From: Escherichia phage vB_EcoM-172859UKE1
DNA length: 64,000 bases
Sequence record: MZ234025.1
Strand: one strand, 5' to 3'
The notes beneath the pieces are model-generated. The model did no database searches. It saw only the letters and a program-made list of their open reading frames with translations, and was not told the DNA's origin. Below, piece by piece: positions 6,683-52,546 of the stretch; within the stretch, counting starts at the first letter, position 1; every line of letters begins with the position of its first letter. Made by a program: the position numbers and the translations under genes.

Positions 6683-7096
6683 ATGAATATTTCTGAAACT
6701 CGCGGTAAATGGTTCAAGATCGTTAAAGAAGATGAAGAACTACAAGTCAAGTTTCCTGAATTAAAGAAAGATACGATCATCAAGGTAATTGGTACTACTA
6801 CCGAAGATGGTTATGGCGACCATGGCATTATCGAAGTGATGTTGAACACAGGTGAGAAACTTTGCATCTATGACCGTGATACTTCTCTTTGGTGCTTCTG
6901 GGAATCCCATTCAATAGATGAACTCGAAGAAATTGACCAAGTAGTTTGTGATGGTGGACTTGGCGAATTCGAAGGTGAACGTATTTCTTATGCTTTAGCT
7001 AAATTAGCCGGACAAGAAAATAACGACGGCTATGAAGGTAACCTGATGCAAGCAGCCGCAGAATACATTGAATATTTAGAAAGACGTTTAAGTTAA
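6683..7096 (+). CDS. hypothetical protein
   Basis: 138-aa ORF from internal ATG (MNISETRGKWF...) of the 6545..7096 frame. Confidence 0.45.
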   Translation: MNISETRGKWFKIVKEDEELQVKFPELKKDTIIKVIGTTTEDGYGDHGIIEVMLNTGEKLCIYDRDTSLWCFWESHSIDELEEIDQVVCDGGLGEFEGERISYALAKLAGQENNDGYEGNLMQAAAEYIEYLERRLS

Positions 7097-7101
7097 TAAA
7101 T

Positions 7102-7130
7102 ACCCTTATCTATTTAAGGTAAGGGTTTAT
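7102..7130 (+). terminator. possible stem-loop/weak terminator
   Basis: ACCCTTA...TAAGGGT inverted repeat followed by TTAT. Confidence 0.3.
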
Positions 7131-7131
7131 C

Positions 7132-7605
7132 ATGTTATTATCAGGCGCAAAATATAAAGAAGAAAAACAAAAATTTTATGATGCACAGAATGGTAAGTGT
7201 CCTATTTGCCACCGTGAATTAGACCCTGATGTCCAAGGTAACCATCTTGACCACGACCACGAATTAAACGGGCCAAAAGCAGGTAGAGTTCGTGGGTTAC
7301 TCTGTAATCTGTGCAACGCAGCAGAAGGTCAAATGAAGCATAAGTTCAACCGTTCAGGTCTTAAAGGTCGTGATGTCGACTACCTAGAATGGCTTGAAGC
7401 TCTTCTTGCTTATTTGAAACAAGATTATTCTGATAATAATATCCATCCTAATTTTGTTCCGGACAAAACTAAAGAGTTCTCAAGACTAGGTAAAGAGGAA
7501 ATGATGGCCGAGATGCTTCAAAGAGGATTTGAATATAATGAATCTGATACTAAAACACAATTAATAGCTTCATTCAAAAAGCAGCTTAGAAAGAGTTTAA
7601 AATGA
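7132..7605 (+). CDS. 49: endonuclease VII (Holliday junction resolvase)
   Basis: 157 aa, same length as T4 gp49; zinc-binding CPICH...CNLCN motifs; adjacent to nrdD. Confidence 0.9.
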   Translation: MLLSGAKYKEEKQKFYDAQNGKCPICHRELDPDVQGNHLDHDHELNGPKAGRVRGLLCNLCNAAEGQMKHKFNRSGLKGRDVDYLEWLEALLAYLKQDYSDNNIHPNFVPDKTKEFSRLGKEEMMAEMLQRGFEYNESDTKTQLIASFKKQLRKSLK

Positions 7606-9419
7606 AAATTGAAAAAGAAATTGAAGGACTGATTCATAAAACTAATAAAGATCTTTTGAACGAGAATGCTAATAAAGATTCTCGTGTTTTTCCAACTCAA
7701 CGGGACCTTATGGCTGGTATTGTGTCTAAGCACATTGCCAAAAATATGGTCCCGTCTTTTATTATGAAAGCACATGAAAGCGGAATTATCCATTTCCATG
7801 ATATTGATTATTCTCCTGCTCTTCCATTTACTAATTGCTGTTTAGTAGATTTAAAAGGAATGCTTGAAAACGGATTTAAGCTTGGTAATGCACAGATTGA
7901 AACTCCTAAATCGATTGGTGTTGCTACTGCAATTATGGCACAAATTACTGCACAGGTTGCTTCACATCAGTACGGCGGAACGACTTTTGCTAATGTAGAT
8001 AAAGTACTTTCTCCTTATGTTAAACGCACCTATGCAAAACATATTGAGGATGCAGAAAAATGGCAAATCGCTGATGCGTTGAATTATGCCCAATCTAAAA
8101 CAGAAAAAGACGTATACGATGCATTCCAAGCGTATGAATACGAAGTAAATACTCTCTTTAGTTCAAACGGACAAACGCCTTTTGTAACAATTACATTTGG
8201 TACTGGAACCGACTGGACTGAACGAATTATTCAGAAGGCAATTCTTAAAAACCGCATTAAAGGCCTTGGTCGTGATGGAATAACTCCTATTTTCCCTAAA
8301 CTTGTTATGTTCGTTGAAGAGGGTGTCAATCTTTATAAAGACGACCCGAACTACGATATTAAGCAGCTTGCTCTAGAGTGTGCAAGCAAAAGAATGTATC
8401 CTGATATTATTTCAGTTAAGAACAATAAAGCTATCACTGGTTCATCTATTCCTGTTTCTCCAATGGGTTGTCGTAGTTTCTTGAGTGTATGGAAAGATTC
8501 GACTGGAAATGAAATTCTTGATGGACGTAATAATCTTGGTGTTGTAACACTGAATCTTCCTCGTATCGCATTAGATTCTTATATTGGAACACAATTTAAC
8601 GAACAGAAATTTGTTGAATTATTCAATGAACGAATGGACCTGTGTTTTGAAGCTTTGATGTGTAGAATTAGTTCTTTAAAGGGTGTTAAAGCAACTGTAG
8701 CTCCTATTCTTTACCAAGAAGGTGCATTCGGGGTTCGTCTTAAACCTGATGACGATATAATTGAGTTATTTAAAAACGGTAGAAGTTCAGTGTCCCTAGG
8801 ATACATTGGTATTCACGAATTGAATATTCTTGTCGGTCGTGATATTGGACAAGAAATTTTAACTAAAATGAATGCCCGTCTTAAACAGTGGACAGAAAGA
8901 ACCGGATTTGCTTTTAGTTTATATTCTACTCCTGCTGAAAACCTTTGTTATCGTTTCTGTAAACTCGATACTGAAAAATATGGAAGTGTAAAGGATGTTA
9001 CTGATAAAGGATGGTACACTAACAGTTTCCACGTTTCAGTAGAAGAAAATATCACTCCGTTTGAAAAGATTTCTCGTGAAGCACCGTATCATTTCATTGC
9101 GACGGGTGGTCACATTTCTTATGTTGAACTTCCAGATATGAAAAACAACCTAAAAGGACTTGAGGCTGTATGGGATTATGCTGCACAACATTTAGATTAT
9201 TTTGGTGTTAATATGCCAGTAGATAAATGTTTTACATGCGGAAGTACCCATGAAATGACTCCTACTGAAACCGGATTTGTTTGTTCTATTTGTGGAGAAA
9301 CTGACCCTAAAAAGATGAACACCATAAGAAGAACATGCGGTTATCTTGGAAATCCTAACGAACGCGGATTTAATCTCGGCAAAAATAAAGAAATCATGCA
9401 TAGGGTTAAACACCAATGA
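7602..9419 (+). CDS. nrdD: anaerobic ribonucleoside-triphosphate reductase
   Basis: 605 aa; C-terminal glycyl-radical region RRTCGYLG and Zn-ribbon CFTCG...CSICG; uninterrupted (no intron). Confidence 0.95.
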   Translation: MKIEKEIEGLIHKTNKDLLNENANKDSRVFPTQRDLMAGIVSKHIAKNMVPSFIMKAHESGIIHFHDIDYSPALPFTNCCLVDLKGMLENGFKLGNAQIETPKSIGVATAIMAQITAQVASHQYGGTTFANVDKVLSPYVKRTYAKHIEDAEKWQIADALNYAQSKTEKDVYDAFQAYEYEVNTLFSSNGQTPFVTITFGTGTDWTERIIQKAILKNRIKGLGRDGITPIFPKLVMFVEEGVNLYKDDPNYDIKQLALECASKRMYPDIISVKNNKAITGSSIPVSPMGCRSFLSVWKDSTGNEILDGRNNLGVVTLNLPRIALDSYIGTQFNEQKFVELFNERMDLCFEALMCRISSLKGVKATVAPILYQEGAFGVRLKPDDDIIELFKNGRSSVSLGYIGIHELNILVGRDIGQEILTKMNARLKQWTERTGFAFSLYSTPAENLCYRFCKLDTEKYGSVKDVTDKGWYTNSFHVSVEENITPFEKISREAPYHFIATGGHISYVELPDMKNNLKGLEAVWDYAAQHLDYFGVNMPVDKCFTCGSTHEMTPTETGFVCSICGETDPKKMNTIRRTCGYLGNPNERGFNLGKNKEIMHRVKHQ

Positions 9420-22122: not shown

Positions 22123-24834
22123 ATGAAAGAATTTTACTTAACGGTTGAACAGATTGGTGATTCAATTTTTGAACGTTACATCGATTCTAATGGCCGTGAA
22201 CGTACTCGTGAAGTAGAATATAAACCATCACTGTTTGCTCATTGTCCAGAAAGTCAGGCTACGAAATATTTCGATATCTACGGTAAGCCGTGTACTCGTA
22301 AGTTGTTCGCTAATATGCGTGATGCCTCCCAATGGATTAAACGCATGGAAGATATCGGACTTGAAGCACTTGGCATGGACGATTTCAAATTGGCGTATTT
22401 GTCTGACACTTATAACTATGAAATCAAATACGACCATACAAAAATTCGTGTGGCTAACTTCGACATCGAAGTAACATCTCCGGATGGGTTCCCTGAGCCG
22501 TCACAAGCAAAACATCCTATTGATGCTATCACCCATTATGACTCAATTGACGACAGGTTCTACGTATTTGATCTATTGAATTCTCCATATGGTAATGTAG
22601 AAGAATGGTCTATTGAAATCGCTGCTAAGCTTCAAGAACAAGGTGGTGATGAAGTTCCATCTGAAATTATCGATAAAATCATTTATATGCCGTTCGATAA
22701 CGAAAAAGAATTGTTGATGGAATATCTCAACTTCTGGCAACAGAAAACTCCTGTCATTTTGACTGGATGGAACGTTGAGTCATTTGATATTCCATATGTG
22801 TATAACCGAATCAAGAATATTTTTGGCGAATCTACTGCGAAACGTTTATCACCACATCGTAAAACTCGTGTTAAAGTTATCGAAAACATGTATGGTTCTC
22901 GTGAAATCATTACATTGTTCGGTATCTCTGTTCTTGATTACATTGACCTTTACAAAAAATTCTCTTTTACCAATCAACCGTCGTATTCTCTGGATTACAT
23001 TTCAGAATTTGAATTGAACGTTGGTAAACTGAAATATGACGGCCCTATTTCTAAGCTTCGTGAAAGCAATCACCAACGATATATTTCTTATAACATTATC
23101 GATGTGTATCGTGTATTGCAAATTGATGCTAAGCGTCAGTTCATCAACTTGAGCTTGGACATGGGTTATTATGCTAAGATACAGATTCAATCTGTGTTTA
23201 GCCCAATTAAAACATGGGATGCTATTATTTTTAATAGCCTTAAAGAACAAAACAAGGTGATTCCACAAGGTCGTTCGCATCCAGTTCAACCTTACCCGGG
23301 TGCTTTTGTTAAGGAACCTATTCCAAATCGATACAAATATGTGATGAGCTTCGACCTCACATCTCTGTATCCAAGCATCATTCGCCAAGTGAATATTAGC
23401 CCGGAAACAATAGCAGGAACGTTTAAAGTAGCTCCACTGCATGATTATATTAACGCAATCGCTGAACGTCCTTCAGATGTGTACAGTTGCTCTCCTAACG
23501 GCATGATGTATTATAAAGACCGTGATGGTGTAGTTCCAACTGAAATCACTAAAGTCTTTAATCAACGTAAAGAACATAAAGGTTATATGCTTGCGGCTCA
23601 ACGTAATGGTGAAATAATTAAAGAGGCATTGCATAATCCTAATCTTTCTGTTGACGAACCATTAGATGTTGATTATCGTTTCGACTTCAGTGATGAGATT
23701 AAAGAAAAGATTAAAAAGTTGTCCGCTAAGTCTCTTAATGAAATGTTGTTTAGAGCTCAACGTACTGAAGTTGCAGGTATGACTGCACAGATTAACCGTA
23801 AATTGCTCATCAACTCACTTTATGGTGCACTTGGCAACGTTTGGTTCCGTTATTATGATTTGCGTAATGCTACTGCAATCACAACATTCGGGCAAATGGC
23901 TTTACAGTGGATTGAACGTAAAGTTAATGAATACCTGAATGAAGTTTGTGGTACAGAAGGTGAAGCTTTCGTTCTTTATGGTGATACAGACTCCATTTAC
24001 GTATCTGCGGATAAAATTATTGATAAGGTTGGTGAATCTAAATTCCGTGATACTAACCATTGGGTAGACTTCTTAGATAAGTTTGCACGTGAACGTATGG
24101 AACCAGCTATTGATAGAGGTTTCCGTGAAATGTGTGAATACATGAACAATAAACAACACTTAATGTTCATGGACCGAGAAGCTATCGCTGGTCCTCCGCT
24201 TGGTTCTAAAGGTATTGGCGGATTTTGGACTGGTAAGAAACGTTATGCATTAAACGTGTGGGATATGGAAGGTACTCGTTACGCTGAGCCTAAACTCAAA
24301 ATCATGGGTCTAGAGACTCAGAAATCTTCGACTCCTAAAGCAGTACAGAAAGCTCTTAAAGAATGTATTCGTCGTATGCTTCAAGAAGGTGAAGAATCAT
24401 TACAAGAATATTTTAAAGAGTTTGAAAAAGAATTCCGTCAATTGAATTATATTAGCATCGCGTCGGTATCTTCTGCGAATAACATTGCTAAATATGACGT
24501 CGGTGGATTCCCTGGTCCCAAATGCCCGTTCCATATTCGTGGAATTCTGACGTATAACCGAGCTATCAAAGGTAATATTGATGCACCACAAGTTGTAGAA
24601 GGTGAAAAAGTATATGTTCTGCCTTTACGTGAAGGAAACCCATTCGGTGATAAATGTATCGCATGGCCTTCTGGTACTGAAATCACAGATTTAATTAAAG
24701 ACGATGTACTTCATTGGATGGACTACACTGTTCTCCTTGAGAAGACATTTATTAAACCACTTGAAGGATTCACATCAGCAGCTAAACTCGATTACGAGAA
24801 GAAAGCATCTCTGTTCGATATGTTTGATTTTTGA
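22123..24834 (+). CDS. 43: DNA polymerase gp43 (family B)
   Basis: 903 aa; exonuclease FDIE, polymerase motifs SLYPS and YGDTDS. Confidence 0.97.
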   Translation: MKEFYLTVEQIGDSIFERYIDSNGRERTREVEYKPSLFAHCPESQATKYFDIYGKPCTRKLFANMRDASQWIKRMEDIGLEALGMDDFKLAYLSDTYNYEIKYDHTKIRVANFDIEVTSPDGFPEPSQAKHPIDAITHYDSIDDRFYVFDLLNSPYGNVEEWSIEIAAKLQEQGGDEVPSEIIDKIIYMPFDNEKELLMEYLNFWQQKTPVILTGWNVESFDIPYVYNRIKNIFGESTAKRLSPHRKTRVKVIENMYGSREIITLFGISVLDYIDLYKKFSFTNQPSYSLDYISEFELNVGKLKYDGPISKLRESNHQRYISYNIIDVYRVLQIDAKRQFINLSLDMGYYAKIQIQSVFSPIKTWDAIIFNSLKEQNKVIPQGRSHPVQPYPGAFVKEPIPNRYKYVMSFDLTSLYPSIIRQVNISPETIAGTFKVAPLHDYINAIAERPSDVYSCSPNGMMYYKDRDGVVPTEITKVFNQRKEHKGYMLAAQRNGEIIKEALHNPNLSVDEPLDVDYRFDFSDEIKEKIKKLSAKSLNEMLFRAQRTEVAGMTAQINRKLLINSLYGALGNVWFRYYDLRNATAITTFGQMALQWIERKVNEYLNEVCGTEGEAFVLYGDTDSIYVSADKIIDKVGESKFRDTNHWVDFLDKFARERMEPAIDRGFREMCEYMNNKQHLMFMDREAIAGPPLGSKGIGGFWTGKKRYALNVWDMEGTRYAEPKLKIMGLETQKSSTPKAVQKALKECIRRMLQEGEESLQEYFKEFEKEFRQLNYISIASVSSANNIAKYDVGGFPGPKCPFHIRGILTYNRAIKGNIDAPQVVEGEKVYVLPLREGNPFGDKCIAWPSGTEITDLIKDDVLHWMDYTVLLEKTFIKPLEGFTSAAKLDYEKKASLFDMFDF

Positions 24835-24874
24835 TATAATGCCAAGGACGGCCAACTAATTAAATGAGAGAAAT

Positions 24875-25510
24875 ATGAAAACTACTCCTATTACTATCGC
24901 TATTGACGCAATCGTAAAACAAGCTTCATCTCTTGCCACTATGGCTAAAGTAATTAGTCAAAACCCTGCTCGTTATAATGCTATTCTAGAAACTCTTCGA
25001 CGCCCTGGACTTAGTAATTATGAAAGCCGGGTAATTATTACAGGTGTTGGTAAGAATGCTAATATCGCAACTAAAGCTTCCGAGACTTTTGCTTCACTAG
25101 GTATTCCTAGCATGTATTTGAATACCGGGCATTATTCTCATGGTGACGCAGGATTTATTGCACCTAATGATGTATTAGTTCACATCAGTCGTTCTGGTAA
25201 GACTGAAGAAATGATAGGTGTTGCTAAACATCTTCGTATGATTCGTCCTCAGGTTAAACAGATTCTGTTACATTGTAACCCTGACATTCCACAAGAATAC
25301 GAAGCTCTTTTTGATTATACGTTCTGTACCGGTATCGCGGTAGAAGTTGACGAGAACTCTTTAGCTCCGACAATGTCCACTACATTGTTGTTAGCGCTTA
25401 TCGATACGTTCGCTATCAACCTTTCGTCTGAACGTGGATTTACCTCTAATGATTTCCTTAAGTTCCATCCAGGCGGTGCACTAGGTGCCATGTTACGAGG
25501 CGAACAATGA
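24875..25510 (+). CDS. SIS-domain sugar-phosphate isomerase (KdsD/GutQ-like arabinose-5-phosphate isomerase-like)
   Basis: 211 aa; ...TGVGKNANIATKASETFASLGIPS..., YSHGDAGF, ISRSGKTEE and C-terminal HPGGALG resemble SIS domain of A5P isomerases. Confidence 0.75.
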   Translation: MKTTPITIAIDAIVKQASSLATMAKVISQNPARYNAILETLRRPGLSNYESRVIITGVGKNANIATKASETFASLGIPSMYLNTGHYSHGDAGFIAPNDVLVHISRSGKTEEMIGVAKHLRMIRPQVKQILLHCNPDIPQEYEALFDYTFCTGIAVEVDENSLAPTMSTTLLLALIDTFAINLSSERGFTSNDFLKFHPGGALGAMLRGEQ

Positions 25511-25650
25511 AAGCAATAACAATAGGACTTTTACTATTGATGCTTGTCATGACTATCTACTGGAGCTTAACGGCTCCGGTAATGATTCCAACACTTGTAA
25601 TTGGATGGATTATGATTGGACTACAAGCAAAGTATGAATGCTTTAACTAG
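25507..25650 (+). CDS. possible small hydrophobic peptide
   Basis: 47-aa ORF with two hydrophobic stretches, ATGA-coupled. Confidence 0.3.
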   Translation: MKAITIGLLLLMLVMTIYWSLTAPVMIPTLVIGWIMIGLQAKYECFN

Positions 25651-25691
25651 AATAGTGTACAATACTCCTACTTACCAATGAGGACTTCAAC

Positions 25692-27377
25692 ATGAAAAAA
25701 GCTGTTATTCTTGGTGCTGGATTGGCAACTCGTTTATATCCAATAACGCATCATATTCCTAAGGTGCTTGTTAACTATAAACAAGACACTATTCTGAGCA
25801 ATTTGTATACAATTTATTCTGACCTTGGCGCAGATGAAATTATTGTAGTAGTTCATTCAAAATTTGCTGAAACTGTTCGAGCTTATTGTGAGCAAGAAGG
25901 GTTCAATGTGACTATTCGTACAGTTGATGAAGCGTATGGTTCTGCTTATGCTCTTGCTAAATTACACAAAGATTTAGACGGCCATAATGTAATTGTTAAC
26001 TGGTGTGATATTATTCCTGATTTTGGTTCATGGTCTTGGAATGTTAACGCAATCTATGTTAAGGGTGACGAATGTCGATATAATTTCGACGGTGAAAATA
26101 TCACTAACGTAGGTTCAACAGGTGGTAATGTTGTAGGAATTTATCAGTTCAAAGACTGGGAATTCTATATGGGTTCTACCGATGAGGAAATTCATGAATA
26201 CTGCAAAGGACGTGATTTCGTAGAATTCCTTTACAGCGGCGCATTCAATAAATCAGAGCTTATGAATATCATCGACCTTGGTGATATGCCTAAACTTGAA
26301 AAGGCCCATGAAGTTCGTGAACTGAACCGTAGTTTTAATGCAGTTGAAATTGGCGAAGAAACTGTAACTAAATTCGCATTAACCGAACAGGGTCGAGCTC
26401 TTCAGAAAGATGAGATTTCGTGGTATTTGAAAGTGAAATCAGATTCAGTTCCTCAGTTAGTTTCTGTTAATGAAAATAACTTTGAAATGGAACGCATTAA
26501 AGGTAAGCCGGCATTTGAATATATTAAATCAAAATCAAGTCTTGCTCGTCCACAAATTGTTGATGCAATTTTAGATGCACTGAAATTCAGCACAGACACT
26601 TATTTTGTAAGTCCTGAAACTGTTCGTCGTGATTTCACTAAAGAATTCTATACGAAAGTTATTGATCGTTGTGAAAGCATTCAACCATTGATTGATTCAT
26701 TTGGTAAAATCACACACGTGAACTACACTAAGATTGGACGTCTGAAGCCAATGCTGAAACAAGCTTTAGAACACCTTATTCGTTATCATAACCGTTCTCA
26801 GGGACAGTACTCTGTTATTCATGGTGACCCGAACTTCAGTAATACTATGATTACTGATAACGGCGAAGTCAAGTTTATCGACCCTCGTGGATATTTTGGT
26901 GAAACCAAGATTTACGGGCCAAAATTGTATGATGAAGCTAAAGTGCTTTATGCTGTTTCAGGTTATGATGAATTCAATGCTAATCCGACCTGGGGGCAGT
27001 TTACTATTGATGAAACAACTTGTAATGTGACTATTAACATCAATCCATTAGTTTACAAATATGGAAAGATGAGTTCGTTTAACGAGTATCATCATTTGGC
27101 AGTGGCAATTATCTGGATTGCATTAGGTGGTTATTTCAAGAATAATCCACTTAAAGCGGTAGCCGCATATTATAAAGGTATGGAACTTCTGACTAAGCAA
27201 TTACGTAACATGGGCCGTGTACTTCAAGACGGCTCTATTAGTTATGACGTAGCAGAACCTGTAACGGCTACTCTGATTACAAAAAATCCTGGTAAATGGG
27301 TACTAACTGATAAAGAAACTGGTGTTTCCTATCGTCCAATCGGTGGCGATATCACTCATCAATGGGAACGAATCTAA
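25692..27377 (+). CDS. bifunctional sugar-1-phosphate nucleotidyltransferase / kinase-like protein
   Basis: N-terminal AVILGAGLATRLYPIT (NTP-transferase G-x-G-x-R); C-terminal HGDPNFSN and IDPRG resemble APH/anomeric sugar kinase catalytic motifs. Confidence 0.7.
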   Translation: MKKAVILGAGLATRLYPITHHIPKVLVNYKQDTILSNLYTIYSDLGADEIIVVVHSKFAETVRAYCEQEGFNVTIRTVDEAYGSAYALAKLHKDLDGHNVIVNWCDIIPDFGSWSWNVNAIYVKGDECRYNFDGENITNVGSTGGNVVGIYQFKDWEFYMGSTDEEIHEYCKGRDFVEFLYSGAFNKSELMNIIDLGDMPKLEKAHEVRELNRSFNAVEIGEETVTKFALTEQGRALQKDEISWYLKVKSDSVPQLVSVNENNFEMERIKGKPAFEYIKSKSSLARPQIVDAILDALKFSTDTYFVSPETVRRDFTKEFYTKVIDRCESIQPLIDSFGKITHVNYTKIGRLKPMLKQALEHLIRYHNRSQGQYSVIHGDPNFSNTMITDNGEVKFIDPRGYFGETKIYGPKLYDEAKVLYAVSGYDEFNANPTWGQFTIDETTCNVTININPLVYKYGKMSSFNEYHHLAVAIIWIALGGYFKNNPLKAVAAYYKGMELLTKQLRNMGRVLQDGSISYDVAEPVTATLITKNPGKWVLTDKETGVSYRPIGGDITHQWERI

Positions 27378-27763
27378 TGCACCGTGTAGAAAACATGCTT
27401 AATCTTTGTTTTGATGTCGATGATTGTATAACAGAGTGGAATAACAATCGTGATTACGTGAACTTCAAACCAGACGTCGAAATGGTGTCTGCCATTAATG
27501 CTCTGTATGATGCAGGGCATACCATAACGCTTTACACTGCTCGCGGTATGAAGTCAGTAGGTCCTGGACGTATAGCAATTGACATTCTCCCAAGTCTGAT
27601 TCAGAACTTGGCAAACATTGGCTTGAAGTACCATAATTTGCTAACACATAAACCAGTATATGATTGGATTATCGACGACAAAGCTATGCGTCCTGACGAA
27701 TTCAAAGCTCTTATGAATAAAGGCGAATTCGAAACATTTAAACCATATAAACCGAATCTATAA
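27377..27763 (+). CDS. HAD-superfamily phosphatase
   Basis: FDVDDCIT (DxDxT motif I) near N-terminus; ~128 aa, size of KdsC/GmhB-type phosphatases; TAATG coupling. Confidence 0.7.
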   Translation: MHRVENMLNLCFDVDDCITEWNNNRDYVNFKPDVEMVSAINALYDAGHTITLYTARGMKSVGPGRIAIDILPSLIQNLANIGLKYHNLLTHKPVYDWIIDDKAMRPDEFKALMNKGEFETFKPYKPNL

Positions 27764-27820
27764 TAATTTAAGTAAGACATGCAAAAACCATCGCATCAAT
27801 TAACGCGAGACGCAAAATAA

Positions 27821-28981
27821 ATGAATACTTTTAAAATCGGAACGAATTTTGATTTAGCTCTTCTTGATAAAATCGTAGAGCTCAATAAAACTTATCCTAA
27901 TAGCTTGATAAATGAAGTATACGGCTCTACAAGAGAAATGGCTTTTGTAGCAGCCAGACCTGATTTTAGGCTTCCTGACGTTGACAAAAAGATGTTAGAA
28001 GATTACGTTAAACGTTGTAACGAATTAGGTATTTGCTTTAACTATACACTCAACACGATAAATCCTGGTTCAAAAAGAGAACTAGTTGAGTGGAAGAAGA
28101 AAGCTATTCAGGATTATGTTCAGTATCTTTGGTCAATAGGCGTATGGCGTATTACTATCGCTAACCCTGTTGTTATGGAAATTGTTCGTGAAGTCAATAA
28201 AGACATTGAGATTGAAGTTTCAACAATTCTACATGTCGATGCTGTAACTCAAATCAAATACTTGCATGACCAATATAATATCAAAAAGGTCTGCTGTGGA
28301 ATTCATAAGAACCGTTCAGTTTCTTTCCTGAAGCGTGCAGCAGAGTTTTGCAATAAGAACAATATAATATTTGAAGTTCTTGTAAATGAGTTCTGTTCTA
28401 ATGCTGGTAAAGGGTATACAACACATTGTAGCTATCGTGACTCTTGCTATATTTTCCATAGTACTGATGTTACAGCTGATGATGCTAAATCCTTAAACGG
28501 ATATCCTATGCAGCACTGTATTAAAGCTCGTGATACAGACCCATTTAACTGGTTGAGAACTCGTTTTGTTCGTCCTCAAGATTTGAAACTTTATAATGAT
28601 ATTGGTATCACTCAATTCAAAGTTTCAGGACGTACAGGTAGCACAGACTACATTTTGAAAGTTCTTGAAGCATACGCTTCTGAAAAGTTTGAAGGTAATT
28701 TGTTAGAACTGTGGAAGCCTTTAGAGACTATTTTCACTCTTGAAAACGAAACTGAGTTTTCACATACAGTAAATATTGAAACCTCTTTGTTAGATGGCTT
28801 TTTAGAAAAAAGGTGGTTCAGACATCCAGATTTCGATTGTGCTAATGAAATCTGCGGGACGACGTGTACATATTGTGAAAGATATTATAAACGTCAATTA
28901 TCTAAAAACGGGTTAGCAGAAAACTCTATATCTATTATTGATATAACTAACTCTGATGACGCTTTGAGGTACCCGGAATGA
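27821..28981 (+). CDS. U32-family-like Cys-rich protein (possible Fe-S enzyme)
   Basis: 386 aa; FNYTLNT, EVLVNEFCS...HCSYRDSC, FKVSGRTGS resemble U32 motifs; C-terminal CxxxCxxxCxYC. Confidence 0.55.
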   Translation: MNTFKIGTNFDLALLDKIVELNKTYPNSLINEVYGSTREMAFVAARPDFRLPDVDKKMLEDYVKRCNELGICFNYTLNTINPGSKRELVEWKKKAIQDYVQYLWSIGVWRITIANPVVMEIVREVNKDIEIEVSTILHVDAVTQIKYLHDQYNIKKVCCGIHKNRSVSFLKRAAEFCNKNNIIFEVLVNEFCSNAGKGYTTHCSYRDSCYIFHSTDVTADDAKSLNGYPMQHCIKARDTDPFNWLRTRFVRPQDLKLYNDIGITQFKVSGRTGSTDYILKVLEAYASEKFEGNLLELWKPLETIFTLENETEFSHTVNIETSLLDGFLEKRWFRHPDFDCANEICGTTCTYCERYYKRQLSKNGLAENSISIIDITNSDDALRYPE

Positions 28982-29061
28982 TTTCTAGAAAAACTTTTAA
29001 CCACCAACTTAATGAAGAGATTTTGACTATGAAACTGAACACTAATGACCAAATTCTTAAA

Positions 29062-29083
29062 CAGGCCCATCAGGGCCTGTTTG
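29062..29083 (+). terminator. GC-rich stem-loop (possible terminator) at the 3' edge of the sugar module
   Basis: CAGGCCC-atca-GGGCCTG perfect 7-bp stem followed by TTT. Confidence 0.35.
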
Positions 29084-29218
29084 AAACTAAAGCGGCTAAA
29101 GTGATTAAAGAAACCTGTTCAATTGGAATACTACGCTGATGCATTTCTTCATAGTGTTCTTGGAAGTATCGATGCTGAAGCTTTACGTTATATCAACATT
29201 GTCAAGAAATTCAAATAA

Positions 29219-29241
29219 GCTTTACGAATTGAGTATATAAT
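29219..29241 (+). promoter_or_regulatory. possible MotA-type middle promoter for gene 42
   Basis: GCTTTA 29219-29224, 11-bp spacer, TATAAT 29236-29241. Confidence 0.35.
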
Positions 29242-29260
29242 AAATTGTATTGAGGTAAAC

Positions 29261-29977
29261 ATGGGAAAACATAACACAATGAAATATATCAAAGCCGCAG
29301 ATTTTCAAACCGCATTTAAAGCAGTCAATCGTGAAATTTTAGAAAACCCGGAATTCGTAACTGATTCTCGTATTGGACGTTGTAATGAAATTGGGTCTAT
29401 GACAGTAGTTGTTGACACTCCATCATCATTCAAAATGACCGACCCACGTATTAACCGCATCTCTTATGAATATGCCGAAGACTTCTGGAAGTTTATGATT
29501 TCTGGTGGTACCAACGCAGAAGAAGCGTTTAAGGCATATCCTAATGTCGCTAAATTTATTTCTAAACCAAAATCAGATGTTTTGCCGGCGAACTTCAACA
29601 CTTTCTATGGTCCTCGCATTGCGGCCCAATTACCAGCTCTTCTAAAAGAACTTAAAGAGAAGCCTAACTCCCGAAGAGTTGTGTTCCAAATTCTAGAAAG
29701 TTCTGATCAGGCTTTGCTTGATTCAGACGAAACGCTTGAATATCCATGTACTGACTCAGTGACTTATTATATTCGTGATGGTAAGCTTTATACCCACTGT
29801 CATATGCGTTCTCAGAACTGTGCTGTTGTTATGCAGTTGGATTTTTATCTCCAAGGAAAATTACTTCATTATATCGCTAACGAATGTGGTGTAGAAGTTG
29901 GTGATTATACTCATACCATGGTAAGTGCCCATGTGTTTGAACGTGATTTTGATTATGTTAAAGGATTCCTTGACTAA
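29261..29977 (+). CDS. 42: dCMP hydroxymethylase gp42
   Basis: 238 aa thymidylate-synthase-fold protein; catalytic region EYPCTDSVTYYIRDGKL...HMRSQN parallels T4 gp42; lacks TS PCH motif. Confidence 0.85.
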   Translation: MGKHNTMKYIKAADFQTAFKAVNREILENPEFVTDSRIGRCNEIGSMTVVVDTPSSFKMTDPRINRISYEYAEDFWKFMISGGTNAEEAFKAYPNVAKFISKPKSDVLPANFNTFYGPRIAAQLPALLKELKEKPNSRRVVFQILESSDQALLDSDETLEYPCTDSVTYYIRDGKLYTHCHMRSQNCAVVMQLDFYLQGKLLHYIANECGVEVGDYTHTMVSAHVFERDFDYVKGFLD

Positions 29978-30876
29978 TGGCTATTTTCCGCGTACCTATT
30001 TTGAGTATGCGGTCTTATGAAACTGGACAGTATGCTATCCTTAAGGATGGCAACTTCCAACTTCATTTGCACCGTGCTAATCCGGGTGATGTGATTACAT
30101 ATCCACGTAATGCATCTGATATTAAAGAATGCGAACGTCTTTTTCCAGAATTTAAGTTTGTTCCATTATGGTATAAAGATAACGCGTATAACACTCGTAA
30201 ATATTTCTGGTCTGAAAATGAATTTGTGGTTGATTCATTAATTGCTTATTATGATTGTGATTTTCTAATCACAGATATCACTGGATATGACGGCGCTTTT
30301 GATGTAGAATTCAATTTCAATATCACTGCAGACCCTAATAAACCACGTTTTTATATTGACGAATTCTTAAAAACCGATATGTTGTCGGTTAATCGTTCAC
30401 TTCAAACTACTGTGTTGAATGAACGTCAAAAAGAAGTGCTGGTTAACGCAGGTGCAGATGGTAATAAGATTATCGTAACACAGAAAGTTATACGTCCTTC
30501 CATCATGCAGCGTCTTGTAGGTGATTTGGCTCCTATTCATCTAGATGGTATTTTTCATCCATTTCGAATTAGTGACCCATGCTATCGTTTTGAACAAGTG
30601 GTTGAATGTGCAATTCAATTAGGTCAACCGCTTTATATAACCGATCCAAATAATAGCTTCGACAGAAATAAGTATCCTGAAGAAGCGCTGATTCGAATTT
30701 TTAAACCAACTAAAACTGAGTACTATCAAATTCTTAAAGGACGTCCGAAGATTCAATATTTCGAAAATCCTGAAGAAGTATTCCATCCAGGTCTTGGCGA
30801 GTTCATCTACTTTAATGCTTTAATTTCTTCGCCGTATAATATACCTAAATACGAAGATGTTGTAATCGAGGAATAA
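29977..30876 (+). CDS. hypothetical protein occupying the beta-glucosyltransferase locus (candidate DNA sugar transferase)
   Basis: 299-aa ORF ATGA-coupled to gene 42; no similarity recognised to T4 beta-gt. Confidence 0.6.
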   Translation: MAIFRVPILSMRSYETGQYAILKDGNFQLHLHRANPGDVITYPRNASDIKECERLFPEFKFVPLWYKDNAYNTRKYFWSENEFVVDSLIAYYDCDFLITDITGYDGAFDVEFNFNITADPNKPRFYIDEFLKTDMLSVNRSLQTTVLNERQKEVLVNAGADGNKIIVTQKVIRPSIMQRLVGDLAPIHLDGIFHPFRISDPCYRFEQVVECAIQLGQPLYITDPNNSFDRNKYPEEALIRIFKPTKTEYYQILKGRPKIQYFENPEEVFHPGLGEFIYFNALISSPYNIPKYEDVVIEE

Positions 30877-30877
30877 A

Positions 30878-31426
30878 ATGGCTAAAATTATTTTAGTAGA
30901 TGGCCCGGATAATGCTGGTAAAACAACTTTCATTAATGACATAATGGAAATTAGTGAAAGATATGTAAAGATTGATTTCCCTAAAAGAACGGTTGATGGA
31001 CGTTTCGATGTTAAGTCTCGAAATGAAGTTGGCTGTTTCGAAACGATGTTGAATTATTTAGACCCTACTAAGATTTATCTATTAGACCGTGGATATATTA
31101 GTAACTGGGTTTATGGACGTATTCGTCAAGATGCGGACTCGGTTCTTGACGTTTATGAACAGGATTATGTTCGTCTTTGCCAAAACCATGATGTGTTCAC
31201 AATTATTTTAACACGTAACGAAATGACTGAAAGTTTTGAAGACGACCTTATTACTTTGTCTTCATTCGGTTTTAATACAGTCATTTCACATTTTGAAGAG
31301 TTTGCAATTCATAACAAAATCCAAACGTATCAATTACTTAATCATGATGGTGCTAACAAAGTTATAGGATTTAATGCAAGCGAACGTAATGATTTGATTA
31401 CAGAAATCATCAAATGGGCTCGTTAA
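30878..31426 (+). CDS. P-loop kinase (NMP/sugar kinase-like)
   Basis: N-terminal Walker A GPDNAGKTT and LDRGY region typical of small P-loop kinases. Confidence 0.6.
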   Translation: MAKIILVDGPDNAGKTTFINDIMEISERYVKIDFPKRTVDGRFDVKSRNEVGCFETMLNYLDPTKIYLLDRGYISNWVYGRIRQDADSVLDVYEQDYVRLCQNHDVFTIILTRNEMTESFEDDLITLSSFGFNTVISHFEEFAIHNKIQTYQLLNHDGANKVIGFNASERNDLITEIIKWAR

Positions 31427-31444
31427 GAGCCATTTAAAGTTTTA

Positions 31445-31471
31445 AATGCTGTATAACCCTTAGTATATAAT
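31445..31471 (+). promoter_or_regulatory. possible MotA-dependent middle promoter for uvsX
   Basis: AAATGCTGTA (one mismatch to MotA box), 12-bp spacer, TATAAT 31466-31471. Confidence 0.35.
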
Positions 31472-31524
31472 CATCTTATCTTTTAAACATGAGTAAAATA
31501 TAATGATGCCTATGGAAAAATACA

Positions 31525-32697
31525 ATGTCTGATTTAAAATCTCGTCTGATTAAAGCTTCTACTTCTAAAATGACTGCAGACTTGACTAAGTCTAAGCTGT
31601 TTAATAATCGTGATGAAGTCCCTACTCGTATTCCGATGTTGAATATTGCATTAGGTGGTGCACTGAATGCAGGGTTGCAATCAGGCTTGACTATTTTTGC
31701 TGCACCTTCTAAACATTTTAAAACATTGTTTGGACTGACCATGGTTGCAGCATATATGAAGAAATATAAAGATGCAATTTGTTTGTTCTATGATTCAGAA
31801 TTTGGTGCTTCAGAATCTTATTTTCGTTCAATGGGTGTTGATTTAGACCGTGTAGTTCATACTCCGATTCAATCTGTCGAACAACTTAAAGTTGATATGA
31901 CTAATCAGCTTGACGCGATTGAACGCGGTGATAAAGTTATTATCTTTATCGATTCAATCGGTAATACTGCATCTAAGAAAGAAACTGAAGATGCATTGAA
32001 CGAGAAAGTTGTAGGTGATATGTCTCGTGCTAAGGCACTTAAATCTCTTTTCCGTATTGTGACCCCGTATCTGACTATTAAAGATATTCCGTGTGTTGCA
32101 ATTAACCATACCGCAATGGAAATTGGCGGATTGTATCCTAAAGAGATTATGGGCGGTGGTACAGGTATTCTTTATTCTGCCAACACAGTGTTTTTTATCT
32201 CTAAACGTCAGGTTAAAGAAGGTACAGAATTGACCGGTTATGACTTCACGTTGAAAGCAGAAAAATCTCGCACTGTTAAAGAAAAATCTACTTTCCCAAT
32301 CACGGTTAATTTTGATGGTGGTATCGACCCATTCAGCGGCTTGCTAGAAATGGCAACTGAAATTGGTTTTGTAGTTAAGCCTAAAGCTGGTTGGTATGCT
32401 CGCGAATTCCTTGACGAAGAAACAGGTGAAATGATTCGTGAAGAAAAATCATGGCGTGCTAAAGCTACTGATTGTGTAGAATTCTGGGGACCTTTGTTTA
32501 AACACAAACCTTTCCGAGATGCAATTGAAACTAAATATAAACTAGGTGCTATCTCTTCTATTAAAGAAGTTGATGACGCTGTTAACGACCTTATTAATTG
32601 CAAAGCAACAACTAAAGTTCCGGTTAAAACTTCTGATGCTCCGTCTGCAGCAGATATAGAAAACGACCTTGACGAAATGGAAGATTTCGATGAATAA
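31525..32697 (+). CDS. uvsX: recombinase UvsX (RecA-like)
   Basis: 390 aa; MSDLKSRLIKASTSK... and Walker A GPSKHFKT closely match T4 UvsX. Confidence 0.95.
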   Translation: MSDLKSRLIKASTSKMTADLTKSKLFNNRDEVPTRIPMLNIALGGALNAGLQSGLTIFAAPSKHFKTLFGLTMVAAYMKKYKDAICLFYDSEFGASESYFRSMGVDLDRVVHTPIQSVEQLKVDMTNQLDAIERGDKVIIFIDSIGNTASKKETEDALNEKVVGDMSRAKALKSLFRIVTPYLTIKDIPCVAINHTAMEIGGLYPKEIMGGGTGILYSANTVFFISKRQVKEGTELTGYDFTLKAEKSRTVKEKSTFPITVNFDGGIDPFSGLLEMATEIGFVVKPKAGWYAREFLDEETGEMIREEKSWRAKATDCVEFWGPLFKHKPFRDAIETKYKLGAISSIKEVDDAVNDLINCKATTKVPVKTSDAPSAADIENDLDEMEDFDE

Positions 32698-36005: not shown

Positions 36006-36254
36006 ATGGAATTATTCGTAGCTAGTTCAGTAGCAGTTTTAATCGCAGGTATTGGTTCAATCATCATTTACATGTTGCCTTGGGTAATCGCACTTATTCG
36101 TGGCACAAAAAGCACAACAGCAATCTTCTTCGTATCTTTACTCTTTAACTGGACGATGGTTGGTTGGATTGGAACTTTAATTTGGTCTATCGTTGCCGAA
36201 AAGAAATCTGCTCTACAGCCTCAACAAGTAATTATTATTCGCGAAAAAGAATAA
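36006..36254 (+). CDS. superinfection immunity protein (Imm-like membrane protein)
   Basis: 82 aa, two TM helices; YMLPWVIALIRG...NWTMVGWIGTLIW fits Imm superinfection-immunity family pattern. Confidence 0.6.
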   Translation: MELFVASSVAVLIAGIGSIIIYMLPWVIALIRGTKSTTAIFFVSLLFNWTMVGWIGTLIWSIVAEKKSALQPQQVIIIREKE

Positions 36255-51445: not shown

Positions 51446-52546
51446 ATGAAAGTTATGTTTATCCCATCTCGTGCAGCCCCATTTAATCCTGACCGTGTAC
51501 AAGGTGGCCTTGAAGCAGTACATTTAAATGTGTTGAAATATCTTGTGTCCATCGGTGCTGATATTGATTATATCGGCTTTGATAATGACACGTTTGGTGA
51601 CTGGAAAGTTACACACCATCCTGTTGGTCATCTGGCTAAATTCAGTCTAGGTATGAGTTATACTATGGCTCGTAAGATTGTTGAACTAGCCAGCATTAAT
51701 GAATACGATTTCGTTGTTACAATGGAACCGACCAAACTAACGGTCCAAGCAATTAAAGATGCTGGACTCTCTAAAGTTCATAAGAATTTTATGGCTACAC
51801 CGTTTGAACCAGTGTCTCGTGGTATTGTTCAAATTTGGGATCAGACTATCCAGATTCACAAGAACGGTGGGAAGAGCTATGCTCCTACTAAAGCATTCCG
51901 TGAATTTGAACGTAAATATTGTCATATGACTTCAGCTCTTACTGACAAAATTGATTATGACTACTGGCGTGAAAATCCATTATTTGAACCTGATGACTAC
52001 CCGGTTATTTGTTTGAATGAAAAACCTGAAGTTCTTCCGGCAACTGAGTTGATTATTAGTGCTCAACGTTATGACACTAAGATGCGTCGCACTGATGTTG
52101 CTCTTGAAGCAATTAAAGCACTAGGCGAAAATGGTATTGGTTATTGTCCAAGCAAATGGGCACCACCAGCTAAATATCCTGTTATTATTGATGCTCCACA
52201 CAGTGAAATCATGGAACGTCTTAAAACAGCTAAAGCACTTATTAATACATGCCCTGACACAGGTACGGTAGAGAATAGTTCTATTGAAGCTATCTCTAAA
52301 GGTGTCCCTGTAATCCAGTTAGTTTTTAAGGATTATCCTCATGCGACATTCGAATACGATCCAGATACTGTGCGTGTAGAAATTGATTCCTCTACTCCTA
52401 AGAAAGAAGTAGTTGCGCTTTACACAAAAGCTGTATTAGAATTCACTGACACATACGAAGCTCGAGTTAAACGTGCTGAAGCAGTATGGAAGAAGTATAA
52501 CCGAGATGCAGTTGTTGCGATGTGGGATAAAATCTTCACAGCGTAA
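51446..52546 (+). CDS. putative GT-B-fold glycosyltransferase
   Basis: 366 aa; MKVMFIPS start and C-terminal TGTVENSSIEAISKGVPVIQ resembling GT4-type motif; weak inference. Confidence 0.5.
   Translation: MKVMFIPSRAAPFNPDRVQGGLEAVHLNVLKYLVSIGADIDYIGFDNDTFGDWKVTHHPVGHLAKFSLGMSYTMARKIVELASINEYDFVVTMEPTKLTVQAIKDAGLSKVHKNFMATPFEPVSRGIVQIWDQTIQIHKNGGKSYAPTKAFREFERKYCHMTSALTDKIDYDYWRENPLFEPDDYPVICLNEKPEVLPATELIISAQRYDTKMRRTDVALEAIKALGENGIGYCPSKWAPPAKYPVIIDAPHSEIMERLKTAKALINTCPDTGTVENSSIEAISKGVPVIQLVFKDYPHATFEYDPDTVRVEIDSSTPKKEVVALYTKAVLEFTDTYEARVKRAEAVWKKYNRDAVVAMWDKIFTA

Follow-up and report, generated by a model that had tools for sequence, protein, structure and literature searches.

What chemistry is served by the genes that lie between the DNA polymerase gene and a ThyA-family gene in Escherichia phage vB_EcoM-172859UKE1 (MZ234025.1), and what does the U32-family protein encoded among them do? 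The stretch of DNA analysed here, called the window, is 64,000 nucleotides long. In phage T4 the interval between genes 43 and 42 holds imm.1 and imm alone, as a preliminary description of this DNA had stated; in the window it holds four genes, which that description took for a single sugar-nucleotide pathway. The sugar-nucleotide module is the published arabinosylation cluster of phage RB69 and is already known; the U32 gene alone remains unexplained. It is very probable, in our judgement, that the interval is part of the arabinosyl-5-hydroxycytosine cluster of an RB69-like Mosigvirus, and that the U32 protein stands outside the sugar route; it would act as an O2-independent C5 hydroxylase.

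Relation of the interval to the RB69 arabinosylation cluster

The list of open reading frames (ORFs) confirms four co-directional ORFs on the + strand at 24875-28981, flanked on the left by the DNA polymerase gene (22123-24834) and on the right by the ThyA-family gene (Table 1). The motifs named in the preliminary description are all present in the translations (SHGD, HPGGALG, AVILGAGLATRL, HGDPNFSN, IDPRG, and DVDDCIT). The GC content of the interval (0.35-0.41) is no different from that of its flanks, and its 4.1 kb of DNA are 98-99% identical to many Mosigvirus genomes. The window proteins that correspond to RB69 gp55, gp53+gp52, gp51, gp50, gp48, gp47+gp46, gp45, UvsX, and gp43 are 96.9-100% identical to them, the exception being a frameshifted gp49. 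By its sequence, the window is that of an RB69-like Mosigvirus. The fused-enzyme gene and the first glycosyltransferase gene are each one intact ORF in the window and are each split in two in the RB69 record NC_004928 (gp53/gp52 and gp47/gp46); the splits in that reference record are sequencing errors (PMC13326640, PMC6024577).

The chemistry of RB69 DNA has been worked out in stages. Thomas et al. 2018 (PMC6024577) reported arabinose on RB69 DNA, flagged the module between the polymerase gene and uvsX, proposed ORF055c and ORF53_52c for the synthesis of UDP-arabinose, and first described the modification as arabinosyl-hydroxymethylcytosine. RB69p045-p055 were later listed as associated genes (Nikulin and Zimin 2021). 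Mass spectrometry (MS) and nuclear magnetic resonance (NMR) then established that mono- and poly-arabinosylated 5-hydroxycytosine takes the place of cytosine in RB69 DNA, the arabinose being ether-linked directly to C5 (Lee, Weigele, Peters et al. 2026, PMC13326640). In the same work RB69 gp48 was shown experimentally to make 5-hydroxy-dCMP (5hodCMP), with the oxygen coming from 18O2 and the flavin loosely bound; 5hodCMP is phosphorylated by the deoxynucleoside monophosphate kinase and built into DNA, and arabinose is added afterwards on the DNA. The authors assigned gp55, gp52:53, and gp51 to the synthesis of nucleoside diphosphate (NDP)-arabinofuranose, and gp46:47 and gp3 to arabinosyl transfer. 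For HY126, the order given by He et al. 2026, as cited in PMC13326640, runs from arabinose-5-phosphate to arabinose-1,5-bisphosphate, arabinose-1-phosphate, and UDP-arabinofuranose: the fused enzyme phosphorylates C1, the 5-phosphate is taken off by a HAD phosphatase, and the last step falls to the nucleotidyltransferase half. In Table 1 of PMC13326640 the steps are still given as arabinose-5-phosphate to arabinose to arabinose-1-phosphate, whereas its text adopts the kinase-then-phosphatase order.

Sugar-nucleotide genes

By homology, the SIS protein would convert ribulose-5-phosphate to arabinose-5-phosphate. It matches Pfam SIS (E 8e-10, above the cutoff), TIGR00393 KpsF/GutQ (E 9e-32), and KdsD (E 4e-30). 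The TIGR00393 match covers profile positions 2-153 of 268 and, at 110.7 bits, falls short of the cutoff of 203.7; neither tandem CBS domains nor a full-length KpsF/GutQ/KdsD match above the curated cutoff is found in this 211-residue protein. Since the match is confined to the SIS half of the KpsF/GutQ/KdsD profiles, the protein has no CBS pair and is a SIS-only version. It belongs to phrog_5670 and is 97% identical to RB69 gp55, whose ribulose-5-phosphate/arabinose-5-phosphate isomerase function was assigned via structure comparison (PMC13326640).

The second gene encodes a fused enzyme. Its N-terminus matches NTP_transferase (E 8e-10, residues 3-99) and contains AVILGAGLATRL as the G-x-G-x-R-L type loop. 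The C-terminal half gives sub-threshold Pfam matches (Fructosamin_kin 0.003, EcKL 0.007, APH 0.03) and carries the HGDPNFSN and IDPRG motifs; a structural match for the kinase half has been reported for RB69 gp52:53 (PMC13326640), to which the window protein is 98-99.7% identical (gp53+gp52). As cited in PMC13326640, arabinose-5-phosphate 1-kinase and UDP-arabinose pyrophosphorylase activities belong to the HY126 homologue AfhE, with which RB69 gp52:53 is equated there. The kinase half is thus predicted by homology to phosphorylate C1 of arabinose-5-phosphate, and the nucleotidyltransferase half to yield UDP-arabinofuranose.

Between these two steps the small HAD phosphatase would take off the 5-phosphate; by analogy with HY126 AfhF, it probably converts arabinose-1,5-bisphosphate to arabinose-1-phosphate. 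Its DVDDC, at residues 18-22 of the 133-residue ORF, is a DxDx(T/V) nucleophile motif. The protein matches the capsule-biosynthesis HAD phosphatase family TIGR01689 (E 5e-13, under the subfamily cutoff), has no match in a Pfam search, and from window position 27377 onward is 98% identical to RB69 gp51.

These results sustain the earlier domain assignments (SIS of KdsD/GutQ type, nucleotidyltransferase, small HAD phosphatase) and, at 97-100% identity to the proteins of the published RB69 pathway, the proposal that the phage itself encodes enzymes that turn a pentose-5-phosphate into NDP-arabinose, the donor for hypermodification of cytosine with a sugar other than glucose. The free sugar that had been placed in the middle of this route gives way to arabinose-1,5-bisphosphate in the HY126 order, as far as it is cited in PMC13326640.

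ThyA homologue, glycosyltransferases, and nucleotide kinase

The gene to the right of the interval had been taken for gene 42, which encodes a dCMP hydroxymethylase, and hydroxymethylcytosine for the acceptor. The ThyA homologue matches Thymidylat_synt (E 2e-15) and is 99.2% identical to RB69 gp48 and 25% identical to T4 gp42 (E 1e-10). In the alignment it reads RSQNC where E. coli ThyA has RSCDV and T4 gp42 has RSNDV, i.e. D169N, and in its "QLD" an Asp stands in the N177 column (N177D, dCMP preference). A T4-type dCMP hydroxymethylase would resemble gp42 closely and keep Asp in the column of ThyA D169, where the window protein has Asn. D169N has been proposed as diagnostic of 5-hydroxy-dCMP synthases (PMC13326640). 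To judge from these residues and the near-identity to gp48, the ThyA homologue is a flavin/O2-dependent 5-hydroxy-dCMP synthase, not a dCMP hydroxymethylase, and would hydroxylate dCMP at C5 by means of flavin and O2. The acceptor has to be revised along with the enzyme, as the base in near-identical RB69 is 5-hydroxycytosine (PMC13326640).

The start codon of the next gene overlaps the stop of the ThyA homologue. Its 299-residue product is 99-100% identical to RB69 gp47+gp46 and has no match in a Pfam search; its AlphaFold2 model (mean predicted local distance difference test score, pLDDT, 93) has a two-Rossmann GT-B fold, with Foldseek matches to MshA (3c4q), HepE, Gtf3, and UDP-GlcNAc 2-epimerases. 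A second GT-B protein, encoded elsewhere in the window, is the homologue of RB69 gp3, which is listed as beta-arabinosyltransferase 2 (PMC13326640 Table 1). By homology, both would move arabinofuranose onto 5-hydroxycytosine. The window had been said to lack recognisable glucosyltransferases. This stands for beta-gt, with which a tblastn search of the window gives no match at E <= 1; what had been missed is the pair of predicted GT-B arabinosyltransferases. The kinase gene that follows encodes a match to the phrog_761 thymidylate kinase family (E 2e-45) that is 99.5% identical to RB69 gp45.

The U32 protein as a candidate hydroxylase

The fourth protein of the interval matches Pfam Peptidase_U32 (PF01136, E 7e-11, 42 bits versus a cutoff of 22), which bears out its description as U32-like and Cys-rich. 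In E. coli, RlhA forms 5-hydroxycytidine at position 2501 of 23S rRNA, TrhP forms 5-hydroxyuridine at position 34 of tRNA, and UbiU/UbiV serve three ring hydroxylations of ubiquinone, where prephenate has been shown to be the oxygen donor; all act independently of O2 and require iron-sulfur (Fe-S) clusters and prephenate, and O2-dependent counterparts exist in TrhO for TrhP and the flavin monooxygenases UbiI/H/F for UbiUV (PMC5727448, PMC6599085, PMC10990095).

The phage protein is 14-23% identical to E. coli UbiU, UbiV, RlhA, and TrhP. Alignment of its subfamily with these proteins by hhalign gives a probability of 95.6% over 208 columns. It places THCSYRDSCY on the U32 signature G-LC-x-S-GRCY, C203 and C209 on the essential 4Fe-4S-binding Cys169 and Cys176 of RlhA/UbiU, and C233 on UbiU Cys232; a plain MAFFT alignment is ambiguous and places C203 and C209 otherwise. 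Ten Cys residues, including C203, C209, and a C-terminal CX4CX3CX2C, are invariant across 21 subfamily members (48-87% identity) and would be enough for two 4Fe-4S clusters. Members of the subfamily are mostly about 360 residues long and lack the long extensions that RlhA and TrhP have at their C-termini (386 residues in the window versus 653 and 453). The AlphaFold2 model (pLDDT 89.6) finds as its best fold match in the PDB the U32 protein 5d88 (Mk0906), followed by generic TIM barrels only; searches of PDB sequences, by phmmer with the protein and by hmmsearch with its family profile, produced no meaningful match.

Taken with gene context and distribution, family membership suggests that the U32 protein would hydroxylate a deoxypyrimidine nucleotide at C5; dCMP is the likeliest substrate because nucleotide kinases are encoded nearby. 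The oxygen would come from prephenate and the electrons would pass through Fe-S clusters, and 5-hydroxy-pyrimidine nucleotides could thus be made without O2, for example in the gut, by a route parallel to the O2-dependent ThyA homologue.

Distribution and gene neighbourhoods of U32

The fused kinase/nucleotidyltransferase occurs in 371 phage records, 57 of them from Acinetobacter phages; U32 occurs in 221, and Acinetobacter is outside the ten commonest host genera listed for it. Acinetobacter phage Kimel and E. coli Dhakavirus VR5 have the SIS, fused-enzyme, HAD, ThyA-like, glycosyltransferase, and kinase genes and no U32, and Acinetobacter phage DLP3, with the same U32-less layout, makes tri-arabinosyl-5-hydroxycytosine (PMC13326640). 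Since these clusters are complete without it, U32 is a separable insert between the phosphatase and hydroxylase genes. It is not needed for the arabinose route, and its earlier placement in the sugar pathway is abandoned here. A rule that phages of facultative anaerobes always carry U32 was also considered and fails on VR5.

Across genera, in comparisons of the window with loci L012-L026, no protein of the cluster is as well conserved as U32 (82-89% identity, versus 66-83% for the polymerase C-terminus, 42-73% for the fused enzyme, and 51-72% for the glycosyltransferase). A scan of IMG/VR added about 29 distant viral loci whose U32 is 37-55% identical; genes within about 6 kb of U32 were counted as neighbours. 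A gp46:47-like arabinosyltransferase homologue is present at 13 of these loci and the fused sugar-activating enzyme at 11, seven neighbouring proteins match a thymidylate-kinase profile, and a ThyA-like gene is found at one, as a weak match. At L028, L032, L033, L038, L041, and L049 a gp46:47-like glycosyltransferase precedes U32, its stop adjoining or overlapping the start of U32, and no sugar-activation genes are found near U32. The Pfam run at L028 and L033 gives the order thymidine monophosphate (TMP)-kinase-like, glycosyltransferase, U32, second glycosyltransferase (GT47 or TET-associated type). This order parallels the T4-like trio of ThyA-like, glycosyltransferase, and kinase genes, with U32 in the position of the hydroxylase. 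At L033 the gene directly 3' of U32 (7086-7976) encodes a TET-associated glycosyltransferase (TAGT), and within 6 kb neither a TET/JBP nor a ThyA-like gene is seen.

Other contexts point to nucleotide metabolism. On a 466-kb phage-like contig a dCMP deaminase gene overlaps the U32 start, with uracil-DNA glycosylase and TMP kinase genes nearby. In Bacillota and Phocaeicola a module is made up of GP88, a methyltransferase (fused to guanylate kinase at L066), a protein of about 265 residues without a Pfam match, and U32; by analogy with the conversion of 5-hydroxyuridine to 5-methoxyuridine (ho5U to mo5U), it may make an O-methylated hydroxy-deoxynucleotide. Further neighbours at the Bacillota loci are NT5C, dNK, a PnuC-like transporter, a radical SAM/SPASM protein, a second U32-like gene, and a deoxyribosyltransferase. 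In every distant context, the neighbours of U32 act on deoxynucleotides or decorate a hydroxyl.

Among 100,044 GTDB species genomes, eight carry the U32 subfamily: Erysipelotrichales, a Bacillota metagenome-assembled genome, Lachnospiraceae, Romboutsia (two), candidate division BRC1, Tannerella, and Phocaeicola faecalis. We take these to be obligate anaerobes or inhabitants of anoxic habitats, BRC1 being the least certain. The distribution suggests a pattern in which phages of Acinetobacter, a strict aerobe, have the ThyA-type enzyme alone, many phages of facultative anaerobes have both, and distant viral contigs have U32 with no clear ThyA-like gene within the distance surveyed.

Linkage of U32 to chorismate mutase

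In Kanagawavirus Entb_45 the gene that overlaps the U32 stop encodes an AroQ chorismate mutase (CM_2 E 2.4e-10). With this protein as query, tblastn finds 56 phage records; among the matches listed, those with E < 1e-3 are all in T4-like phages of Enterobacterales or Shewanella, and in annotated records the chorismate mutase gene always adjoins U32 and/or ThyA-like genes. A 373-residue chorismate mutase-containing protein of a faecal "Bacteriophage sp.", with no U32 nearby, was set aside as irrelevant. The genes 3' of U32 are gp49-like, chorismate mutase, and ThyA-like in PM2, TG1, and L026; chorismate mutase and ThyA-like in Entb_45; gp49-like and ThyA-like in Mosigviruses, including the window; and ThyA-like in L012.

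[quoted passage not shown] A fusion of the two (CM_2 E 2e-24) is encoded upstream of U32 on the viral contigs L036, L037, L039, and L040, with one gene between; in the Pfam run of L036 and L040 this gene encodes a HAD hydrolase, and a homologue of the fused sugar-activating enzyme lies further upstream. On an Erysipelotrichales contig a monofunctional chorismate mutase gene (E 8e-19) lies 2 kb from U32 and overlaps the start of a gene for a TMP-kinase-like protein. Chorismate mutase thus lies near U32 in three separate lineages, and the linkage suggests a tie to U32, as prephenate production has little other obvious use for a phage.

The gp49-like ORF next to U32 in the window is truncated by a one-base insertion (GAAACC versus GAACC in RB69). 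Sequencing error unique to the window was considered as the cause and rejected: phages AV114 (Denmark) and JS09 (China) have an identical 53-residue coding sequence annotated, and the truncation is therefore a lineage variant and not a one-off error. IMG/VR, scanned for an exact pattern of the frameshifted version, yielded no instance. The idea that RB69 gp49 is a degenerate chorismate mutase was likewise rejected, as it has no CM_2 match and PM2, TG1, and L026 carry both genes.

Features of the window and of related loci

Table 1. Positions of the genes discussed; positions refer to the window except where a locus is named.
Feature	Position	Strand	Length and basis
SIS-only arabinose-5-phosphate isomerase, RB69 gp55 homologue, predicted	24875..25510	+	211 aa; profiles, RB69 identity
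Bifunctional sugar kinase / NDP-sugar pyrophosphorylase, RB69 gp52:53, AfhE-type, predicted	25692..27377	+	561 aa; profiles, RB69 identity
Small HAD phosphatase, RB69 gp51, AfhF-type, predicted	27362..27763	+	133 aa; RB69-equivalent start 27377
U32-family protein, RB69 gp50, putative Fe-S	27821..28981	+	386 aa; Peptidase_U32, profile alignment
Truncated gp49-like ORF	28978..29139 (other frame reads on to 29217)	+	53 aa vs 79 aa in RB69
ThyA-family 5-hydroxy-dCMP synthase, RB69 gp48, predicted	29261..29977	+	identity, D169N/N177D signature
GT-B fold DNA arabinosyltransferase 1, RB69 gp46:47, predicted	29977..30876	+	299 aa; identity, model
Thymidylate-kinase-like nucleotide kinase, RB69 gp45, probable role	30878..31426	+	P-loop GPDNAGKTT
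Second arabinosyltransferase, RB69 gp3 / ORF003c homologue, predicted	51446..52546	+	96% identity to gp3 over 366 aa
GP88-methyltransferase-~265 aa-U32 module	L066:2996-7086 (Phocaeicola faecalis), L007:5135-9098, L061 (Bacillota)		
DAHP-synthase + C-terminal chorismate mutase fusion	L040:4332-5384, L036:4411-5430, L039:4321-5373, L037:9-968		

A gap of 180 nucleotides (25510-25692) separates the SIS gene from the fused-enzyme gene; the RB69 annotation has here a 36-residue ORF, RB69p054, "similar to T4 42-imm intercistronic region". An imm homologue (64% identity to T4) is located at 36006-36254, about 11 kb from the T4 position between genes 43 and 42, and the slot of imm is now occupied by the modification cluster. 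A scan for sigma-70 promoters and terminators over 24700-31600 gave results no better than chance.

Assessment of the proposed role and its alternatives

If all four genes, U32 included, formed one sugar-nucleotide pathway via free arabinose, and hydroxymethylcytosine from a gene-42 dCMP hydroxymethylase were the base decorated, the domains of three of the genes would fit a route from pentose-5-phosphate to NDP-sugar, and the published record would lend some support: the modification was first called arabinosyl-hydroxymethylcytosine (Thomas 2018, PMC6024577), and the labels in Table 1 of PMC13326640 pass through arabinose. We regard this as very improbable. The ether linkage to 5-hydroxycytosine seen by NMR and MS and the 5hodCMP made by gp48 (PMC13326640) contradict it, as do the D169N residue of the window ThyA homologue, the equivalent clusters that function without U32, and the kinase-then-phosphatase order that the text of PMC13326640 follows from its citation of HY126. 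A closer competitor, although still an unlikely one, makes U32 a reductase or other redox enzyme acting on a sugar or heterocycle, which tailors the arabinose donor or reduces a base intermediate. RB69 gp50 carries such a label (PMC13326640 Table 1), the TIM barrel fold is common to many sugar enzymes, and at least 11 of the distant viral loci have U32 together with genes for SIS and AfhE-like proteins. There is no reductase among the characterised U32 members (PMC5727448, PMC6599085, PMC10990095), however, and the reported arabinose structure of RB69 calls for no further tailoring (PMC13326640); clusters of the L028 type pair U32 with glycosyltransferases and a kinase in the absence of sugar-activation genes, and the linkage to chorismate mutase would be left unexplained.

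T4-like phages carry tRNA genes, and U32 might be an auxiliary gene for the tuning of translation that lies here by chance, its product hydroxylating host or phage tRNA at U34 or rRNA at C2501 as TrhP and RlhA do. The two best-known U32 enzymes of nucleic acids indeed use RNA (PMC5727448, PMC6599085, PMC10990095), but their long C-terminal extensions are missing from the phage protein, whose gene is embedded among DNA-modification genes and often overlaps them; elsewhere its neighbours are dCMP deaminase, TMP and deoxynucleoside kinases, NT5C, deoxyribosyltransferase, and DNA glycosyltransferases. An RNA substrate is therefore rather improbable. Least probable of all is a true collagenase-like peptidase, even though records are annotated "peptidase", "collagenase-like protease", or "U32 family peptidase": the members that have been characterised serve in hydroxylation and the catalytic mechanism of U32 "peptidases" is unestablished (PMC5727448, PMC6599085, PMC10990095), while the ten invariant Cys residues with their CX4CX3CX2C indicate Fe-S clusters and the gene context is one of nucleotide metabolism.

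Several observations weigh against C5 hydroxylation by U32 and against the sugar route as drawn here. RB69 gp48 alone suffices for 5-hydroxycytosine in aerobic E. coli, RB69 gp50 is labelled "sugar or heterocycle reductase" in its sole mention, and the kinase-then-phosphatase order rests on He 2026 by way of its citation (PMC13326640). In vitro reconstitution has been achieved for no U32 hydroxylase (PMC5727448, PMC6599085, PMC10990095). Three of the four Fe-S ligands of UbiU have aligned counterparts in the phage protein, and UbiU C193 is without one. E. coli Dhakaviruses do without U32 despite the same host, the scarcity of ThyA-like genes near distant U32 holds for about 6 kb only, and Mosigviruses, including the window, have lost chorismate mutase, the gp49-like neighbour in the window being truncated as well.

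C5 hydroxylation by U32 can be extended to a wider proposal, for and against which we see the balance as even. U32 would be the founding member of a subfamily carried by viruses, made up of pyrimidine C5 hydroxylases with Fe-S clusters that depend on prephenate, need no O2, and act on deoxynucleotides or DNA. In phages of facultative anaerobes it would be a second, anaerobic route to 5-hydroxycytosine beside the ThyA type, in phages of strict anaerobes the sole route to the hydroxyl acceptor for glycosylation or methylation of DNA, and the chorismate mutase of many such phages, or the DAHP-synthase fusion of some, would supply the oxygen donor. A literature search found nothing that ties phage U32 or chorismate mutase to 5-hydroxycytosine; He et al. 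2026 and Mahler et al. 2025 were outside its reach.

The sugar-nucleotide module adds nothing new, and the older assumption of hydroxymethylcytosine has since been corrected; the value of the locus is the U32 gene. Because the published synthase takes its oxygen from O2 and the hosts are gut bacteria, DNA modification without oxygen is a directly testable question. If true, the U32/prephenate route would give the U32 enzyme family its first DNA-precursor substrate and explain why phages carry chorismate mutase. U32 would also be a marker gene for hydroxylated or glycosylated DNA in phages of anaerobes, with a bearing on evasion of restriction and CRISPR and on the choice of therapeutic phages.

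Comparison with known systems

The closest known system is the RB69 cluster gp45-gp55 with gp3, which has the same genes in the same order and at the same site between gp43 and uvsX. The window differs from the RB69 record in that gp52/53 and gp46/47 are unsplit and the gp49-like ORF is cut to 53 residues. HY126, as described in PMC13326640, shares with the window a fused enzyme (AfhE; its kinase half is predicted in the window) with a nucleotidyltransferase half, and a HAD phosphatase (AfhF, Mg-dependent in HY126). The hydroxymethylcytosine system of T4 (gp42, alpha-gt, beta-gt, and host UDP-glucose) is alike in its ThyA-family enzyme, in the incorporation of a C5-oxygenated dCMP that is glycosylated after replication, and in its map position. 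Unlike T4, the window would make a hydroxyl and not a hydroxymethyl group (D169N; flavin and O2 in place of folate), its donor sugar is phage-made, and it has no beta-gt homologue.

For U32 the relevant comparison is with RlhA, TrhP, UbiU, and UbiV of E. coli, with which the phage protein shares the U32 domain, the two essential Cys residues in alignment, and, in pyrimidine C5 hydroxylation, the chemistry needed here. It differs from them as a distinct subfamily with a C-terminal CX4CX3CX2C, without the C-terminal domains of the RNA enzymes, and with a presumed deoxynucleotide or DNA substrate. The proposed link of phage U32 to prephenate, by way of adjacent chorismate mutase genes, would match the E. 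coli U32 factors, and its pairing with an O2-dependent ThyA-type enzyme mirrors the pairs TrhO/TrhP and UbiIHF/UbiUV.

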